From a virus (taxonomy: Duplodnaviria > Heunggongvirae > Uroviricota > Caudoviricetes), in the IMG/VR virus record IMGVR_UViG_2897375277_000002: a DNA stretch of 47,882 bases. One strand, 5' to 3'. The translations under genes and the position numbers were made by a program. Below the pieces are notes generated by a model. That model was not told the origin of the DNA. It saw nothing but the letters and a program-made list of their open reading frames with translations, and made no database searches. Below, piece after piece: positions 35,429-44,565 of the stretch (position 1 is its first letter; every line of letters begins with the position of its first letter).

Positions 35429-36955
35429 TTAGAAATAAATCTCACCATCAACCATATATTTGAGAGCACTTATCGCCTGCTGGGCGGATATTACTTTCAT
35501 TAAAGGGTAGTGTTTAAAAACAATGCCATTCATAAAATAGATATCACAGGTTTTATTATCCGTATTAATTATGATTTTTTCGAATGTTTTATAGGCAAGT
35601 GTACGGCATAACTCTCGTCCATTTTTACTGGTTAAGTCAATAGCATAAAAATCACTGAATGAATTTACACCTTTACTCTTCAAAGTTTTCAATGATACCG
35701 AAGCCCTTCGTAATTCCTTATCTAATAGTCTTATTTTCTCTACTATAGCGGTAACTTCAGGCGCGACAGACAATGCAACGATTAAATTATTAATTTTCAT
35801 CTGAAGCTCAATAATTTTTAACTCTAAAGTTTCATTAGCATCTTTCTTGTTTTCAACTGGTTGAATTTTGCTACAATTAAAAAGCAATTCATTAATGATA
35901 TTATAATCAACCAAATCTCTTTTTATTGATGGCCTGTCACATCGATGTAATCTTCTCATCGGACAAACATAATAGCCATGCAAACTTCCAGATACCGCAT
36001 GAACAATCATGGTATTACCACAAGCCTCACACTTCATAACTGTTCGAAGTAGATTTATTAGCATAGGATTCTTGCTACTATTGCTAATACCAAAAGGTGC
36101 CAACCGAATTTCCTGTACAGCGTAAAACAAATCATCTGATATGACTCTGGGATAATAGCCAGCGATTTCACTTATCCCTTTCCCTCTTGCACGATATGAA
36201 GGTACGCATATACCTATCAGAGCTTTATTCGCTAATAATTTTTCAATTACAGAAGGTCCCCATGCACTTTCTTTTCCTGAGAAATTCTTTACAGCATGAT
36301 CATTTAAATACTTGGCTATTGCATTCAATGAGCGCCTTTCCATCCTGAGTTTAAAAATTAGCTCAATAGTTTTCACCCTGTCGGGGTCTGGAACAAAAGC
36401 CGTTCTTTTGTCATCTAAGGAGAGCCATCTCGGACAAGACGCCGTCATAATCGTACCTGATTCCAGTGCATCCTGCCGTTTTTTCTTCCATGATAATTTA
36501 ACCCGACTTGACTTTATCTCGCTTTCTTCATTTGCCCTTTGTGCTATAAGTATGGCTTTTATTAATGAATATGGCTCATTCAAAGAGTCAATATTATAGA
36601 CTGTATTGTCGCAAAGAGTTATAACATCAATACCGTGATTCAAAATCAATTTCAGACGTTCAATCGCTTCACCGACTTTTTCTCTTGAAAGTCTGTCCAG
36701 ACTTTCAACTAACAATGTAGTTCCTGGCAATATATAACCATGCTCTATAGCATCTAAAAATTCCGAAAAAGCTCCTGATTGTGCATGCTTTCCTTTGAAT
36801 GCACTTAATCCTAAATCTTCATATGTTATGGTATCAAGATAATAATCACTATTTACCTTTAACCATTCAGCAATAAGTCTTCTCTGTCGGTTTAATGAGT
36901 CACCAGACATCTGACCTGGTGATGAAAATCGCATATATGCTATGGCTTTTTTCAT
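35429..36955 (-). CDS. ybcK: large serine recombinase (YbcK-like)
   Basis: 508-aa ORF; N-terminal resolvase-like catalytic domain (AIAYMRFSSPGQ... with Ser) plus large C-terminal domain with Cys cluster; AT-rich. Confidence 0.8.
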   Translation of the reverse strand: MKKAIAYMRFSSPGQMSGDSLNRQRRLIAEWLKVNSDYYLDTITYEDLGLSAFKGKHAQSGAFSEFLDAIEHGYILPGTTLLVESLDRLSREKVGEAIERLKLILNHGIDVITLCDNTVYNIDSLNEPYSLIKAILIAQRANEESEIKSSRVKLSWKKKRQDALESGTIMTASCPRWLSLDDKRTAFVPDPDRVKTIELIFKLRMERRSLNAIAKYLNDHAVKNFSGKESAWGPSVIEKLLANKALIGICVPSYRARGKGISEIAGYYPRVISDDLFYAVQEIRLAPFGISNSSKNPMLINLLRTVMKCEACGNTMIVHAVSGSLHGYYVCPMRRLHRCDRPSIKRDLVDYNIINELLFNCSKIQPVENKKDANETLELKIIELQMKINNLIVALSVAPEVTAIVEKIRLLDKELRRASVSLKTLKSKGVNSFSDFYAIDLTSKNGRELCRTLAYKTFEKIIINTDNKTCDIYFMNGIVFKHYPLMKVISAQQAISALKYMVDGEIYF

Positions 36956-37140
36956 GGTGACACCTGCTAACGTATGCTTTTATAAACCTTAGTGGTGGGA
37001 TATAATTTTTGTTTAATTTTTATTTAAAAAGACAATTAAGGTCACATTATCTTGAATATACAACAATAATCGTATTGCAATTTTCTTACGCCATAATCTT
37101 GAAAGCACAAAAGAATACATAAAAAATAAAGACATTAACA

Positions 37141-37179
37141 AAAAGCATAAAACGAGGCTCATATAAATATAAGAGCCTC
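37141..37179 (-). terminator. intrinsic terminator downstream of emrE
   Basis: Minus strand GAGGCTC-(12-nt loop)-GAGCCTC followed by GTTTTATGCTTTTT. Confidence 0.5.
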
Positions 37180-37209
37180 CATATTTTAGTCGTTTAGAAA
37201 CAAATTATT

Positions 37210-37542
37210 TTAATGTGGTGTGCTTCGTGACAATAAATTAATAACCAACACACCGGCACAAATCAACATCATGCCTATAATAGCTGGCAGGTCCAGCCGT
37301 TGGTCGAAAAGTCCCCATGACAGTAAGCTAATCAGGACAATACCGACTCCTGACCAGATAGCATAAGCAATCCCTGTAGGAATATAAGCCAGCGTCTGAG
37401 CTAATAACCAGAATGATGCACAATAACAAATAATTGTACCAACAGATGGCCATAACCGTGTAAAACCTTCTGAAAACTTCATTAAGGTTGTACCAATGAC
37501 CTCTGCAAGTATTGCACCACCAAGATAAATATAAGGGTTCAT
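37210..37542 (-). CDS. emrE: SMR-family multidrug efflux transporter EmrE
   Basis: Start set at MNPYIYLGGAILAEVIGTTLMKFSEGFTRLWPSVGTIICY... (110 aa), matching E. coli EmrE; ORF track extends 18 codons upstream. Confidence 0.9.
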   Translation of the reverse strand: MNPYIYLGGAILAEVIGTTLMKFSEGFTRLWPSVGTIICYCASFWLLAQTLAYIPTGIAYAIWSGVGIVLISLLSWGLFDQRLDLPAIIGMMLICAGVLVINLLSRSTPH

Positions 37543-37609
37543 AGCATATTCTTTCCTGTTCAAACTGGAGAGAATTGTACTACAGTTTGAACTCAACTCA
37601 CCTGTTTCA

Positions 37610-39835: not shown

Positions 39836-40168
39836 CTATTCCAGCGGTAGTACCGCCAGAATTGCCGGGGTCAGTTCACGCACGTTATTTCGGTATTTTT
39901 CAGAATCGAATTTGTTATCGAGGAAGCGGAACAGCTTCTGGCGTGCACGGCTGACATCATCAGGAAAATCGATGGTGCCGCCGCCCTGCTCCCGATACTC
40001 ATTCACAATGAGTGCGGCAACAACATCCTGATTATCTGCAGCCGACCAGGCGCGAACGGCATCACGGATTTTTTCGTGGCCTAGCGCCTGTTTTGTTTGA
40101 GAACGATTTATCACCGCAGTCGGGCTAAATCCGCTAGTCTGTTGGTATGTAAGTGGTTGCATAGTCAT
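39836..40168 (-). CDS. hypothetical protein at the cII position (possible CII-like regulator)
   Basis: 110-aa ORF downstream of cro and upstream of O; no similarity to lambda CII that I can recognise. Confidence 0.5.
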   Translation of the reverse strand: MTMQPLTYQQTSGFSPTAVINRSQTKQALGHEKIRDAVRAWSAADNQDVVAALIVNEYREQGGGTIDFPDDVSRARQKLFRFLDNKFDSEKYRNNVRELTPAILAVLPLE

Positions 40169-40192
40169 TGCCTTATCAGTTAACGCCGCAGA

Positions 40193-40420
40193 TTAGGCGG
40201 CAGAATTACTCGCGTTAAACAATGGTGCGAGGTCGGGACGAATATCTGCTGGTTTAATCTTTCCACCAGTGGCTGAGACAATTTTCATTACATAGCGGGC
40301 ATCAATTCCGCCACCGTGTAGCCAACGCCAAACAGTGGGCTGGGCTACACCGCATAGATCTGCCAGTCGTTTTTGACTACCTGTAATACTGATTGCGAGT
40401 TGAATGGTTTGATTTGTCAT
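40193..40420 (-). CDS. cro: Cro-like HTH repressor
   Basis: 75-aa ORF MTNQTIQLAISITGSQKRLADLCGVAQPTVWRWLHGG... (HTH); divergent from cI across an operator-containing spacer. Confidence 0.8.
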   Translation of the reverse strand: MTNQTIQLAISITGSQKRLADLCGVAQPTVWRWLHGGGIDARYVMKIVSATGGKIKPADIRPDLAPLFNASNSAA

Positions 40421-40530
40421 TATTAATTCCCATTGGTATTACAATGAATAAATAATAGCAATGCGTATTAATCATAACAATAGCAAAACGTGTTTTGACC
40501 ATCAATACGCAAGCGTATAAATTAAAACTT
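40421..40530. promoter_or_regulatory. OR region with putative PR (minus strand: -35 TTGTTA at 40475-40480, 17-nt spacer, -10 TATTAT at 40452-40457) and AATAGCAA(T) operator motifs
   Basis: Hexamers and motif copies (40454-40462, 40479-40486) read directly; the same motif recurs in the putative OL. Confidence 0.55.
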
Positions 40531-41223
40531 ATGAAAAAAGAAACTCTTGCTGATCGCTTAAACCTAGCGATGGAACAATCTGGAATGTCTCAAGGCGCTC
40601 TTGCAAAGGCGTCTGGCGTAGCTCAACCCACAATCTGGAGACTGACAAGCGGCAACGCGCGCGGCTCAACAAAAATTGTTGAAATAGCTAATGCATTGGG
40701 TGTTCGAACAGAGTGGCTCTCATCAGGCATAGGCCCGATGAGAAATGACGGTCAACAATTAGGGAAGCCTACTGCCAACCATCCCAAATACTTCAAGATT
40801 GACGTTCTTGATATAGAAGTGAGTGCCGGGCCGGGAGTCATCAACCGTGAGTTTGTAGAAGTTCTACGCTCGGTTGAGTACTCGTTTGACGATGCTCGTC
40901 ACATGTTCGATGGTAGGAAGGCAGAAAATATCCGCATCATTAACGTACGCGGTGACAGCATGTCAGGAACGATTGAACCTGGTGATCTTCTATTCGTTGA
41001 TATCACGGTTAAATCTTTCGACGGTGATGGTATCTATGCGTTTCTGTACGACGACACAGCCCATGTAAAGCGCCTGCAAATGATGAAGGATAAGCTGCTG
41101 GTTATCTCTGATAACAAAAGCTACTCACCGTGGGACCCGATCGAGAAAGATGAGATGAACCGGGTATTTATCTTCGGGAAAGTTATTGGGAGCATGCCGC
41201 AGACGTATAGGAAGCATGGATAG
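40531..41223 (+). CDS. cI: CI-type repressor (N-terminal HTH, C-terminal S24 LexA-like peptidase domain)
   Basis: MKKETLADRLNLAMEQSGMSQGALAKASGVAQPTIWRL... with C-terminal ...GDSMSGTIEPGDLLFVD... (Ser-Lys dyad type). ORF track starts at a TTG at 40495; ATG 40531 preferred, likely leaderless. Confidence 0.85.
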   Translation: MKKETLADRLNLAMEQSGMSQGALAKASGVAQPTIWRLTSGNARGSTKIVEIANALGVRTEWLSSGIGPMRNDGQQLGKPTANHPKYFKIDVLDIEVSAGPGVINREFVEVLRSVEYSFDDARHMFDGRKAENIRIINVRGDSMSGTIEPGDLLFVDITVKSFDGDGIYAFLYDDTAHVKRLQMMKDKLLVISDNKSYSPWDPIEKDEMNRVFIFGKVIGSMPQTYRKHG

Positions 41224-41303
41224 TACCAATTAAAAATTATCAACCGGGCATTGTGCTCATTCAGTAAAACAACTTAATTATTCATTTTAGAATGGAGAAC
41301 TTA

Positions 41304-42365
41304 ATGGATACTTTAAAATATGAGAAATTCTCTGATTTTGATCACAATGACCCATTTTTTGACTCTTTAAAAAAAGATTATAAAGAGTTTCCTCTTTGGT
41401 TAGAAAAAAAAGCCAGAGAAGGAGAATCAGCTTATGTGCTCTATGATGACAAGCATAAAATCGAAGGTTTTATGTATCTAAAAGAAAATGATGATGCAAA
41501 TGACATTAATCCAGCGCTCCCACCAGGACGTCATCTAAAGATAGGAACATTCAAATTTGAATCTAAAGGCACCCTTCGCGGACAACGATTTCTAAAAAAA
41601 GCGTTTGACCATGCATTTTCATCAAAATCTGATGATATTTATGTTACTGTTTTCGACAAACACGTCCATCTAATAAAACTTTTCCAAACGTACGGATTTT
41701 ACATTCATGGTGAAAAAGAAACACATAACGGGAAAGAGTTTGTATATGCGAGGTCTTTGCATGAGCCTTATGGTGATATTTTATTAGATTACCCTCGAAT
41801 AATGACATCAAGGGCCAACAAATATTTACTGGCGATTTATCCCGAATATCACACTAGACTATTCCCTGATTCAAAACTTGTAAATGAATCACCAGATATT
41901 GTCAAAGATATATCCCATGCTAACAGCATTCATAAAATTTACATATGTGGAATGCGTTCTGTGATGGGAATGAAAAGAGGAGATATCATTGTCATCTATA
42001 GAACCGGAGACAAAAAAGGGCCAGCTCGCTATCGTTCTGTAGCCAGTACATTATGTGTAGTTGAGAGCGTAAAAAATATTTCTGAATTTTTAAGCGAAGA
42101 TAGTTTTGTAGACTATTGTATTCGTTTTAGCGTATTTTCTGAAGATGAACTCAGAAAAATCTATAAAGAACGTCGATACCCTTTCATTATAAGATTCACA
42201 TACAATCTGTCTTTGCCAAAGAGACCCAATCGTGCTATTTTAATAGATCATGTGGGGCTAAATGGTTCGCGTGCATTCCGATGGAGTCACTTTAAACTCA
42301 CAAATGAGCAGTTCTTAAAGATCATCGAGTTAGGCAAGATAAATGAAAGTTTTATTATCCATTAA
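41304..42365 (+). CDS. GNAT-like acetyltransferase domain protein with uncharacterised C-terminal domain (rex-position cargo gene 1)
   Basis: ORF 41292..42365; ATG at 41304 has an SD (GGAGAA). Segment LRGQRFLKKAFDHAF...DDIYVTVFDKHVHLIKLFQTYGFYIHGE resembles GNAT motifs A/B; AT-rich; no lambda counterpart. Confidence 0.6.
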   Translation: MDTLKYEKFSDFDHNDPFFDSLKKDYKEFPLWLEKKAREGESAYVLYDDKHKIEGFMYLKENDDANDINPALPPGRHLKIGTFKFESKGTLRGQRFLKKAFDHAFSSKSDDIYVTVFDKHVHLIKLFQTYGFYIHGEKETHNGKEFVYARSLHEPYGDILLDYPRIMTSRANKYLLAIYPEYHTRLFPDSKLVNESPDIVKDISHANSIHKIYICGMRSVMGMKRGDIIVIYRTGDKKGPARYRSVASTLCVVESVKNISEFLSEDSFVDYCIRFSVFSEDELRKIYKERRYPFIIRFTYNLSLPKRPNRAILIDHVGLNGSRAFRWSHFKLTNEQFLKIIELGKINESFIIH

Positions 42366-42720
42366 GCCTGAGTTTGCAGAAAAAATATTGAACGGAACAA
42401 AGCGGTTCGAGTTTCGTAAAGGTATATTCAAAAATCCGCAAATTAGCACCGTTGTTATTTATGCCACGATGCCATTAGGTAAAGTTGTTGGTCAATTCCG
42501 TATTGAATCAATACTAAGTGACGAACCGGAATCTCTTTGGAAAAAGACGGAAAAACACGCAGGTATTTCTAAGCAATTTTATGACTCATATTATTCAGGT
42601 AGAGAAAAGGCCTACGCAATAAAAATTGGTGAAGTGGAAAGATATAAAGAACCAATTCCTATCTCTGCTCTAGGTAGTAATATTAAGCCACCACAATCAT
42701 ATCTTTACCTACCTGCGTAA
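42343..42720 (+). CDS. ASCH-domain (PUA-like) protein (rex-position cargo gene 2)
   Basis: 125-aa ORF MKVLLSIKPEFAEKILNGTKRFEFRKG... with the ASCH N-terminal signature; overlaps gene 1 by 23 nt. Confidence 0.65.
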   Translation: MKVLLSIKPEFAEKILNGTKRFEFRKGIFKNPQISTVVIYATMPLGKVVGQFRIESILSDEPESLWKKTEKHAGISKQFYDSYYSGREKAYAIKIGEVERYKEPIPISALGSNIKPPQSYLYLPA

Positions 42721-42724
42721 GAAT

Positions 42725-42751
42725 CCCGGCCACCGTGCCGGGTTTTCTTTT
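42725..42751 (+). terminator. intrinsic terminator ending the cI / cargo operon
   Basis: CCCGGC-CACCGT-GCCGGG hairpin followed by TTTTCTTTT immediately after the ASCH gene stop. Confidence 0.7.
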
Positions 42752-42837
42752 GTCCCCTCATCACACAAACCGTTCGAAAAACCACCACATCCTCCCTTCA
42801 GTTATCGCTATGCGATGCAAGTCACAAAATTAATTCT

Positions 42838-42918
42838 TTTTGCTATCAAACAGTTAATATCAAAACACATCAATCAATAGCAATAAGTATTGATACAGCC
42901 AATAGCAATAGCTATTAT
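42838..42918 (+). promoter_or_regulatory. putative OL/PL: -35 TTGATA (42890-42895), 17-nt spacer, -10 TATTAT (42913-42918), with CAATAGCAAT operator copies at 42875-42884 and 42900-42909
   Basis: Consensus-like hexamers with 17-nt spacing on the + strand pointing toward gam/bet/exo; the operator motif is shared with OR. Confidence 0.55.
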
Positions 42919-42991
42919 CACCATGTCGCAACAACACAACGATACGGCAATCACCTGATTCACCGTTGCGATGACCGCTTAGATCCGCAGC

Positions 42992-43402
42992 TTGAATTTC
43001 AGCAGGCTCCGGGGAGTGCGAGGGGTGAAGCGGACGCGTGAACGTCGGTGTGACCAGCTGAAATCAACTCAACACCTCATACCTCAGTCGCTTCAACGAG
43101 GCGGCTTAGTTATGACAACCGGCGGCCATCCACCGCCTGAATACGCGCAGAAGTCTCTATATGTTCAGCAGCCCAGCTTACGGGCAGGAGTTTTTATGGT
43201 TCATCAACATTACGGAACGCAGACCGTTAATCGCGGTGCGGTCATGCCAGGAATGCTGGTCAAACACAAAGATGGTACCTGGACTGCATCAGCTAATTTA
43301 CGCGGACGGCTTTATCTGCATCGCGGCATCGAGCGCACTTATACCCGTGATTTGCTCGTGGAAGTTTTTCTCGACGGACGCGGTAACGGCCTGAATCGCT
43401 AA
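42992..43402 (+). CDS. hypothetical early-left protein with Arg-rich N-terminus (possible N/Nun-like antiterminator; start uncertain)
   Basis: ORF begins at TTG 42992; alternative in-frame GTG at 43016/43025 (…VKRTRERR…) or ATG at 43112. First ORF after the putative PL; no confident family match. Confidence 0.35.
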
Positions 43403-43477
43403 TCCCCTTTCCTGTTTTCCTAATCAGCCTGGCATTTCGCGGGCGATATTTTCACAGCCATTTTCAGGAGTTCAGCC

Positions 43478-43774
43478 ATGAACGCTTATTACATTCAGGA
43501 TCGTCTTGAGGCTCAGAGCTGGGCGCGTCACTACCAGCAGATCGCCCGTGAAGAGAAAGAGGCAGAACTGGCAGACGACATGGAAAAAGGCCTGCCCCAG
43601 CACCTGTTTGAATCGCTATGCATCGATCATTTGCAACGCCACGGGGCCAGCAAAAAAGCCATTACCCGTGCGTTTGATGACGATGTTGGGTTTCAGGAGC
43701 GCATGGCAGAACACATCCGGTACATGGTTGAAACCATTGCTCACCACCAGGTTGATATTGATTCAGAGGTATAA
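43478..43774 (+). CDS. gam: Gam (RecBCD inhibitor), short form
   Basis: 98-aa [42 protein letters not shown]... matching lambda GamS; the in-frame upstream region has no start before a stop. Confidence 0.9.
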
Positions 43775-43779
43775 AACGG

Positions 43780-44565
43780 ATGAGTACAGCACTCGCAACG
43801 CTGGCAGGGAAGCTGGCTGAACGTGTCGGCATGGATTCTGTCGACCCACAGGAACTGATCACCACTCTTCGCCAGACGGCATTTAAAGGTGATGCCAGCG
43901 ATGCGCAGTTCATCGCATTGCTGATCGTCGCCAACCAGTACGGCCTTAATCCGTGGACGAAAGAAATTTACGCCTTCCCTGATAAGCAGAACGGCATTGT
44001 TCCGGTGGTGGGCGTTGATGGCTGGTCCCGCATCATCAATGAAAACCAGCAGTTTGATGGCATGGACTTTGAGCAGGACAATGAATCCTGTACATGCCGG
44101 ATTTACCGCAAGGACCGTAATCATCCGATCTGCGTTACCGAATGGATGGATGAATGCCGCCGCGAACCATTCAAAACCCGCGAAGGCAGAGAAATCACGG
44201 GGCCGTGGCAGTCGCATCCCAAACGGATGTTACGGCATAAAGCCATGATTCAGTGTGCCCGTCTGGCCTTCGGATTTGCTGGTATCTATGACAAGGATGA
44301 AGCCGAGCGCATTGTCGAAAATACTGCATACACTGCAGAACGTCAGCCAGAACGCGACATCACTCCGGTTAACGATGAAACCATGCAGGAGATTAACACT
44401 CTGCTGATCGCCCTGGATAAAACATGGGATGACGACTTATTGCCGCTCTGTTCCCAGATATTTCGCCGCGACATTCGCGCATCGTCAGAACTGACACAGG
44501 CCGAAGCAGTGAAAGCTCTTGGATTCCTGAAACAGAAAGCCACTGAGCAGAAGGTGGCAGCATGA
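43780..44565 (+). CDS. bet: Bet single-strand annealing protein (RecT family)
   Basis: 261-aa [40 protein letters not shown]... matching lambda Bet. Confidence 0.95.

Follow-up and report, generated by a model that had tools for sequence, protein, structure and literature searches.

The 47,882-nt stretch of viral DNA analysed here (IMG/VR record IMGVR_UViG_2897375277_000002, Caudoviricetes; hereafter the window) carries two overlapping genes, gevT (41304..42365, + strand) and gevA (42343..42720, + strand), directly downstream of a cI-type repressor gene. The pair belongs with near certainty to the GNAT-EVE/ASCH (PDC-M11, GevTA) family and forms a moron of a lambda-like prophage, in which it occupies the rexAB slot. 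Taken as a whole, GevTA is probably a lysogen-expressed defence module of the toxin–antitoxin type. An earlier sequence-only reading of the same DNA had presented the pair as a candidate for an undescribed and unnamed system. This part of the reading was overturned: GevTA is already known, having been described computationally in 2013 and 2020, catalogued in PADLOC-DB as PDC-M11 and named in one GenBank phage record of nearly identical sequence.

Family assignment and gene layout

GevT was matched by the PADLOC model PDC-M11A with an expectation value (E) of 2.1e-133 (6-356 of 357), and GevA was matched by PDC-M11B with E 6.8e-52 (1-123 of 125). The 1528-bp region was found at 99.9-100% identity in eight lambdoid Escherichia coli phage records, and the two genes are annotated as 'GevT toxin' and 'GevA antitoxin' in PV340567.1 (Escherichia phage PhiR47_2, 99.9% identical). 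The PhiR phages are lambda-related temperate phages assembled as a panel by the Laub laboratory, with Brenes & Laub 2025 as the reference given. GNAT-EVE + ASCH operons are recognised by a GNAT fold, a fused EVE-type domain, an adjacent ASCH gene and full-length PDC-M11 matches, all of which were found at this locus.

Operons of the form (PIN)-GNAT-EVE + ASCH (+AAA_17) were predicted to be toxin–antitoxin systems by Bell, Wolf & Koonin 2020 (BMC Biol 18:159). In that paper, such operons are said to encode ASCH nearly always and an AAA_17 ATPase often, the latter being non-essential, and GNAT-EVE proteins are described as common in beta- and gamma-proteobacterial prophages. The paper also states that none of these modules had been characterised at that date; it credits the first description to Iyer et al. 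2013 (NAR 41:7635) and reports that a DNA target was proposed there. The accessory AAA_17/18 P-loop gene is absent at the present locus, where a terminator stands directly 3′ of gevA. The toxin/immunity-type arrangement guessed from the letters is in agreement with PDC-M11, with the GenBank labels and with the prediction of Bell et al. 2020. The prefix 'Gev' most probably stands for GNAT-EVE; the literature found on the Gev names and on GNAT-EVE consisted of PADLOC output lists and Bell et al. 2020, and contained no description of a biochemical mechanism.

The layout read from the letters alone, with two open reading frames on the same strand directly after cI and a 23-nt overlap (42343..42365, + strand), was confirmed to the coordinate; the overlap is probably a sign of translational coupling. 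The gevA gene encodes 125 aa. For gevT, the start at 41304 gives a protein of 353 aa and the other, upstream ATG at 41292 one of 357 aa. The former is the likelier start because it is preceded by GGAG at 41294-41297 (6 nt 5′ of the ATG), the N-termini of GevT homologues correspond to it, and the representative of the 100%-identical cluster is 353 aa long. Homologues were collected at E≤1e-3 in numbers of 1631 (gevT) and 2443 (gevA), and the pair is kept across many bacterial phyla; both are therefore real genes and not chance open reading frames.

The repressor gene (40531..41223, + strand; HTH_3 + Peptidase_S24) is the upstream gene of the operon, its start being that of RefSeq by correspondence with locus L003. 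It is separated from gevT by a spacer of 80 nt (41224..41303, + strand) that includes the Shine–Dalgarno GGAG and in which the scan detected no terminator-like site and folding gave no stable RNA structure (z +0.86). The cI-gevT-gevA unit is closed by an intrinsic terminator (42725..42751, + strand; six G–C pairs followed by a T-run), and the strength claimed earlier for this hairpin, which lies before the putative PL, was upheld by a free energy of −15.6 kcal/mol and a z of −3.1. Since operator-like repeats flank the pair at OR and at OL, gevTA lies inside the immunity region, in the slot that holds rexAB in lambda. From this layout it would be co-transcribed with cI; the slot and the likely co-transcription had both been proposed before, and the present reading agrees with both. 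Promoter-like sites within gevT were no more frequent than in shuffled sequence, and a search of Rfam with 40000-44000 gave matches at chance level only.

The G+C content over the pair is 0.33-0.38, versus 0.46-0.55 in the flanks. In a more distant allele, homology is confined to 41304-42721, and this span is accordingly taken as the limits of the cassette. The same cassette was found behind at least two different repressor alleles.

The GevT and GevA proteins

GevT gave no significant match in Pfam or in NCBIfam, and it was matched by phrog_6345 with E 1e-186. An AlphaFold2 model prepared with 60 homologues (predicted local distance difference test, pLDDT, 93.4; predicted template-modelling score, pTM, 0.90) consists of two domains: an N-terminal GNAT acetyltransferase domain (residues 1-152; 41304..41759, + strand) and a C-terminal PUA-superfamily EVE/ASCH-like domain (residues 165-353; 41796..42362, + strand). 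As judged from the model, the GNAT fold of the N-terminal domain is certain. The segment that the sequence-only reading had quoted as GNAT-like aligns to the acetyl-CoA loop and to α4 of PaiA, so that the GNAT call stood in fold, while the Pfam GNAT match that had been expected with it did not appear. Residues K79, K84, Y113, G131 and E145 are invariant, and Y130 is conserved in at least 90% of the sequences. Conservation as strict as this favours an active enzyme, and catalysis is predicted on that ground.

In structural comparisons, the C-terminal domain was matched best by ZmASCH (5GUQ, value 13.1). Values of 11.0-11.5 were obtained with the EVE proteins 1wmm, 2gbs, 2ar1 and THYN1, 10.2 with VcaM4I, 8.3-9.0 with YTH domains and 8.3 with YqfB; the sequence profile of the domain gave no match among PDB sequences. 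On the basis of the modelled fold, and of the placement by Bell et al. 2020, who count the clade of this domain among the EVE domains, the beta-rich C-terminus that had been left unplaced is a PUA-superfamily EVE/ASCH-like domain. Profile–profile comparison of this domain with the GevA family yielded a weak N-terminal strand motif only ('K-x-LL-S/A-I-x-PE', probability 16-30%), and for this reason any paralogy of the two is argued from the fold only.

GevA is an ASCH protein, as had been called from the letters (PF04266, E 2.5e-8). Its sole significant solved relative is ZmASCH (5GUS; phmmer E 8e-16, profile E 1e-17), a ribonuclease of Zymomonas mobilis that is specific for single-stranded RNA (PDB 5GUS/5GUQ; Kim et al. 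2017) and in which RNA cleavage requires the hydroxyl of a cleft Tyr (Kim et al. 2017). From the printed alignment and the residues named by Kim et al., the ZmASCH cleft residues Arg32, Tyr47, Thr49, Tyr90, Gln127 and Ser128 are conserved in GevA as R25, Y40, T42, Y83, Q118 and S119, respectively; Lys53 is off-column, its position being taken by G46 with K47 adjacent. The general ASCH signature GxKxxExR is also retained. Among 81 homologues from many phyla, K20, E23, R25, Y40 and Y83 are conserved in 100% and Q118/S119 in 99%, and conservation over the whole mapped cleft together with the K20/E23/R25 signature is 98-100%.

ZmASCH itself does not represent a GevA orthologue within an operon of the Gev type, since the 375-aa protein encoded next to it shows no relation to GevT (hhalign probability 0.1%). 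As ZmASCH is not encoded beside a GevT-like gene, its ribonuclease activity is not simply transferable to GevA, for which such an activity is only putative. In a Neorhizobium sp. locus (L101, 2280-4902), a ZmASCH-like ASCH gene overlaps the 3′ end of the gene for a 721-aa protein with weak GNAT matches and a faint GevT-like C-terminus (hhalign E 0.015). The neighbours there are a gene with a Type ISP restriction C-terminal domain, a reverse transcriptase, an integrase and a Prim-Pol gene, and the pair may be a larger variant of the GNAT-EVE/ASCH theme.

Distribution, proposed function and alternatives

The family comprises 1421 clusters at 50% identity (E≤1e-3). Genomic contexts were surveyed for the best 80 of 287 relatives in species-representative genomes, and viral contexts for 80 loci from 263 relatives on viral contigs. 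The 80 genomic relatives are spread over Proteobacteria, Bacteroidota, Firmicutes, Acidobacteriota, Cyanobacteria, Chloroflexota and Verrucomicrobiota at 45-74% identity, which is indicative of horizontal transfer. A GevA homologue adjoins the GevT homologue in every one of these genomic loci (80/80); the two genes overlap on the same strand in 75, are convergent in four and are separated in one. The overlap of 23 nt is the commonest value, being found in 38 of the 75 same-strand pairs across phyla. The gevT–gevA pair is likewise retained in 79 of the 80 viral loci. Upstream neighbours in the viral set (46 distinct) carry HTH_3 (26), Peptidase_S24 (14) and Phage_CI_repr (12) domains; downstream, integrases (13/44) and RecE-type exonucleases (7/44) are found. 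Immediate genomic neighbours include an AAA_17/18 third gene at about 11 of the 80 loci, integrases (five) and S24 repressors (four), with scattered defence genes (type III restriction enzyme, GajB, type I methyltransferase, SoFic, TIR-TM, PDC-S candidates).

In Klebsiella and Aeromonas prophages of the P2/186-like type, the pair stands between CI and int. In Vibrio cholerae (L005-L008, 6240-9953), GevT and GevA are followed by an overlapping AAA_17/18 P-loop gene, and the pair is cargo of a TniQ–Cas (type I-F, Tn7-like) transposon, next to a SNIPE/T5orf172-domain gene, umuDC and a 1270-aa SIR2_2 protein. A three-gene islet made up of the pair and an AAA_17/18 gene occurs in Shewanella. The exact cassette was found in 275 of 5426 complete E. 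coli genomes (~5%), single-copy and chromosomal. In one of the loci, E. coli E138 (NZ_AP022351.1, L004 3081-4917), gevT is split by IS1 while gevA, cI and the flanks are intact, a pattern that is expected if the first gene is toxic, although it is a single case. The 'frameshifted' gevT of SCU-485 was rejected as evidence of this kind, since gam, bet and exo are frameshifted there as well and assembly errors are likely.

Fusions among GevT homologues were found in the forms TIR_2-GNAT-EVE (P0244), PIN-GNAT-EVE (P0312), PIN-GNAT-EVE-ASCH (P0306) and ASCH-PIN-GNAT-EVE (P0322). The TIR fusion is not mentioned in the passages of Bell et al. 2020 that were consulted. It is among the additions of the present analysis, together with the cleft conservation, the ZmASCH-like reader domain and the recurring CI-adjacent slot.

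Of the known systems, PDC-M11/GNAT-EVE + ASCH operons have the same architecture as the window pair and the same gamma-proteobacterial prophage habitat. With lambda RexAB, gevTA shares the slot (downstream of cI, in the immunity region, with a terminator before OL/PL) and, by inference, the logic of two lysogen-expressed genes directed against a superinfecting phage. No RexA or RexB homology was detected, the PADLOC scan at E≤1 having returned PDC-M11 models only. RexA and RexB are thought to be a sensor and membrane-channel pair, whereas soluble enzyme/reader folds are predicted for GevT and GevA. Other cargo of the cI–PL slot is represented by sieB or BstA-type genes. In lambdoid phages, the cI–PL 'rex slot' serves generally as an insertion site of defence cargo, and the CI–int slot is its equivalent in P2-like phages. 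The pair described here offers, within a lambda-like E. coli prophage, a clean case of this very widespread module that lends itself to genetics.

Type II toxin–antitoxin systems with GNAT toxins (TacAT, AtaRT, KacAT, ItaRT) resemble GevTA in that the toxin has a GNAT fold, the neutralising partner is small and the two genes overlap within one operon. Classical toxins of this group are, however, stand-alone proteins of about 170 aa, which GevT is not, and their antitoxins are ribbon–helix–helix or helix–turn–helix (RHH/HTH) DNA-binding proteins encoded upstream, whereas the partner in GevTA is an ASCH protein encoded downstream. Acetylation of aminoacyl-tRNA is the best-precedented toxic chemistry of GNAT proteins (cited in Bell et al. 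2020).

The following mechanism is proposed for the probable defence module. The two genes would be transcribed together with the repressor in the lysogen, and the pair would act against a superinfecting phage as an abortive-infection or exclusion module of the toxin–antitoxin type. GevT would be the effector, a role made likely by the TIR and PIN fusions, by the IS1 break in E138 and by the depositor's toxin label; its reader domain would bring the GNAT domain to a nucleic-acid-linked substrate for acetylation. The leading candidate for this substrate, suggested by the precedent of the GNAT toxins TacT and AtaT, would be an aminoacyl-tRNA or another RNA, a target that can be put forward tentatively and that is itself less probable than not. 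Acetylation of the substrate would halt translation and growth, and GevA would hold GevT inactive until the superinfecting phage perturbs the GevA/GevT control.

A mechanism that relies solely on a labile antitoxin is excluded because the ASCH domain is fused in cis in some relatives. GevA is probably more than a plug, given its invariant ZmASCH-like cleft, these cis fusions and the fold subfamily that it shares with the GevT reader; a ligand-sensing inhibitor, or one that handles or competes for the substrate, is more likely than a simple labile plug, and an enzymatic 'eraser' role is possible. The mechanistic hypotheses are narrowed by the conservation of the GevA cleft, by the ZmASCH-like fold of the toxin's reader and by the TIR, PIN and ASCH fusions.

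Several points weigh against the defence reading or against parts of it. A toxin gene in first place and the absence of a DNA-binding antitoxin are unusual among type II toxin–antitoxin systems, the 'toxin/antitoxin' label is a GenBank annotation, and PDC-M11 is a candidate system only. The acetyl-CoA loop of GevT (K88-G-T-L-R-G93) departs from Q/RxxGxG/A, the last glycine alone being kept, and Phe127 stands at the position of the usual catalytic Tyr of α4; with these two deviations, catalysis by GevT is not assured. The nearest well-studied relatives of its EVE domain, THYN1 and VcaM4I, read modified DNA, which makes a DNA target possible; among the closest characterised relatives of the domain as a whole, RNA is read as well as modified DNA. 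Finally, immediate genomic neighbours are only modestly enriched in defence genes.

A first alternative to inhibition by GevA is a pair that makes and removes a modification in the manner of DarTG: GevT would acetylate a base or an aminoacyl-tRNA, and GevA would remove the mark or degrade the marked RNA, so that neutralisation would be catalytic. DarTG consists of a nucleic-acid-modifying toxin that is reversed by an enzymatic antitoxin, and in CapRel a phage product is sensed by an antitoxin domain fused in cis. As functional analogies, both would fit the conservation of the GevA cleft and the existence of ASCH fusions, and neither is related to GevTA in sequence or in fold. The cleft, including the Tyr required for RNA cleavage by ZmASCH, is invariant across phyla, which would be surprising if the antitoxin did no more than bind protein; enzymes are known among ASCH proteins, as with the ribonuclease ZmASCH and with YqfB, deposited as an N4-acetylcytidine amidohydrolase (9kyf); and the convergent or separated ASCH genes of some loci are compatible with action in trans on a substrate. 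Conversely, no YqfB chain was matched by GevA at E≤10 in phmmer or profile searches of PDB chains, though 9kyf was in the collection, and by these searches GevA falls outside the YqfB-type ASCH subfamily. The solved relative with ribonuclease activity is not a neighbour of a GevT-like gene, and the cis fusions of ASCH with GNAT-EVE suit regulation as well as catalysis. The acetyltransferase/deacetylase pairing with a YqfB-like partner, as put forward in the sequence-only reading, therefore found no specific support, GevA being ZmASCH-like; it is possible because the GevA cleft is strictly conserved. Overall, a reversible modification appears unlikely.

A more specific and rather doubtful version of the role of GevA within the defence reading is that of an RNA-binding or RNA-processing ASCH protein that controls the toxin by competing for, or processing, the nucleic-acid ligand of GevT, a ligand that would possibly be modified or phage-derived. 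GevA and the targeting domain of GevT are both closest to ZmASCH. If this were true, GevT would provide the first demonstrated case of a toxin that acetylates a nucleic-acid-linked substrate chosen by a modified-base reader domain, and the 'reader-guided writer plus decoy/eraser' would be an immune logic unlike that of classical type II toxin–antitoxin systems.

The pair could also be a pure addiction module, in other words a selfish cassette that serves to maintain the prophage or its own presence and does nothing against other phages. The compact, mobile form with sharp boundaries and low G+C content, the patchy distribution by horizontal transfer across phyla, the toxin–antitoxin-like organisation and annotation, and the many genomic neighbours that are ordinary housekeeping genes would all fit this explanation. 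It is nevertheless quite unlikely to be the whole account: the pair recurs beside CI in a lysogen-expressed slot of unrelated phage families, which is the site of known exclusion genes, it sits with defence genes in the Tn7-like transposon carrying TniQ and Cas genes, its relatives are fused to TIR and PIN effectors, and it was selected as a PADLOC defence candidate. Addiction and defence are mutually compatible roles.

Very unlikely is a modification or counter-defence function of benefit to the phage, in which GNAT-EVE would acetylate modified DNA or RNA bases against host restriction or would manipulate the host, as hypothesised by Iyer et al. 2013 and by Bell et al. 2020. Because the genes belong to the repressor operon, with PRM before them and OL/PL after them, they would be expressed in the lysogen and not be specific to the lytic phase, the time at which phage DNA needs protection; in addition, the depositor's annotation is toxin/antitoxin, and the pair occurs outside phages too.

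Immunity region and neighbouring genes

Candidate repressor operators of the AATAGC-N4-GCTATT palindrome type are present in two copies per site at OR and at OL. At OR (40451..40494), two copies of AATAGCAA..TATT with 25-bp spacing lie between divergent PR-like and PRM-like promoters; the former (40480-40452, − strand) and the latter (40495-40523, + strand; TTGACC-17-TAAATT) were each assigned by consensus match only. At OL, the repeats CAATAGCAATAAGTATT and CAATAGCAATAGCTATT (42875-42916, 25-bp spacing) are overlapped by a PL-like promoter (42890-42918, TTGATA-17-TATTAT), and this element (42875..42918, + strand) forms the right boundary of the immunity region. The genes kil, gam, bet and exo lie downstream of it.

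With the end of its −10 hexamer 7 nt 5′ of the cI ATG (40531), the PRM-like promoter is so placed as to suggest that the cI mRNA is leaderless as in lambda. At 39836-40420 of the window (− strand), the gene at the cro position belongs to the YdaS family (PF15943) and the one at the cII position carries YdaT_toxin (PF06254); by these sequence matches, the immunity region is of the Rac/YdaST type and not that of lambda cro/cII. Phages with the identical cassette and another immunity (L001/L002/L103/L109) differ from the window at 40164-40767 only, a segment made up of cro, OR and that half of cI which encodes the N-terminal, DNA-binding part; the C-terminal domain of cI, gevTA and the OL/PL region are about 97% identical between these immunity variants.

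Between the PL-like promoter and kil (43196-43402), an N-like antiterminator gene is absent from the window (42919-43195). The leader of about 280 nt and the open reading frame at 42992-43402 gave no match in Pfam and none in Rfam, and the RNA fold is ordinary (z −0.67).

In the P2/186-like prophages and in Haemophilus, an extra unannotated open reading frame of 250-379 aa, which has no Pfam match, lies between the CI repressor and gevT (6903-7976 in L009/L010/L012, 5987-6991 in L015 and 6234-6986 in L013). The Klebsiella version has a hydrophobic C-terminal tail, and the gene may represent either an independent defence gene or a third component.

A second AT-rich patch of the window (35429-37596, − strand; G+C content 0.31-0.39) lies between the replication genes/ren and the late region. 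Among its products are a large serine recombinase of 508 aa (Resolvase + Recombinase + Zn_ribbon_recom) and a protein matched by PF00893 with E 4e-35, which is an EmrE-like transporter of the small multidrug resistance type.

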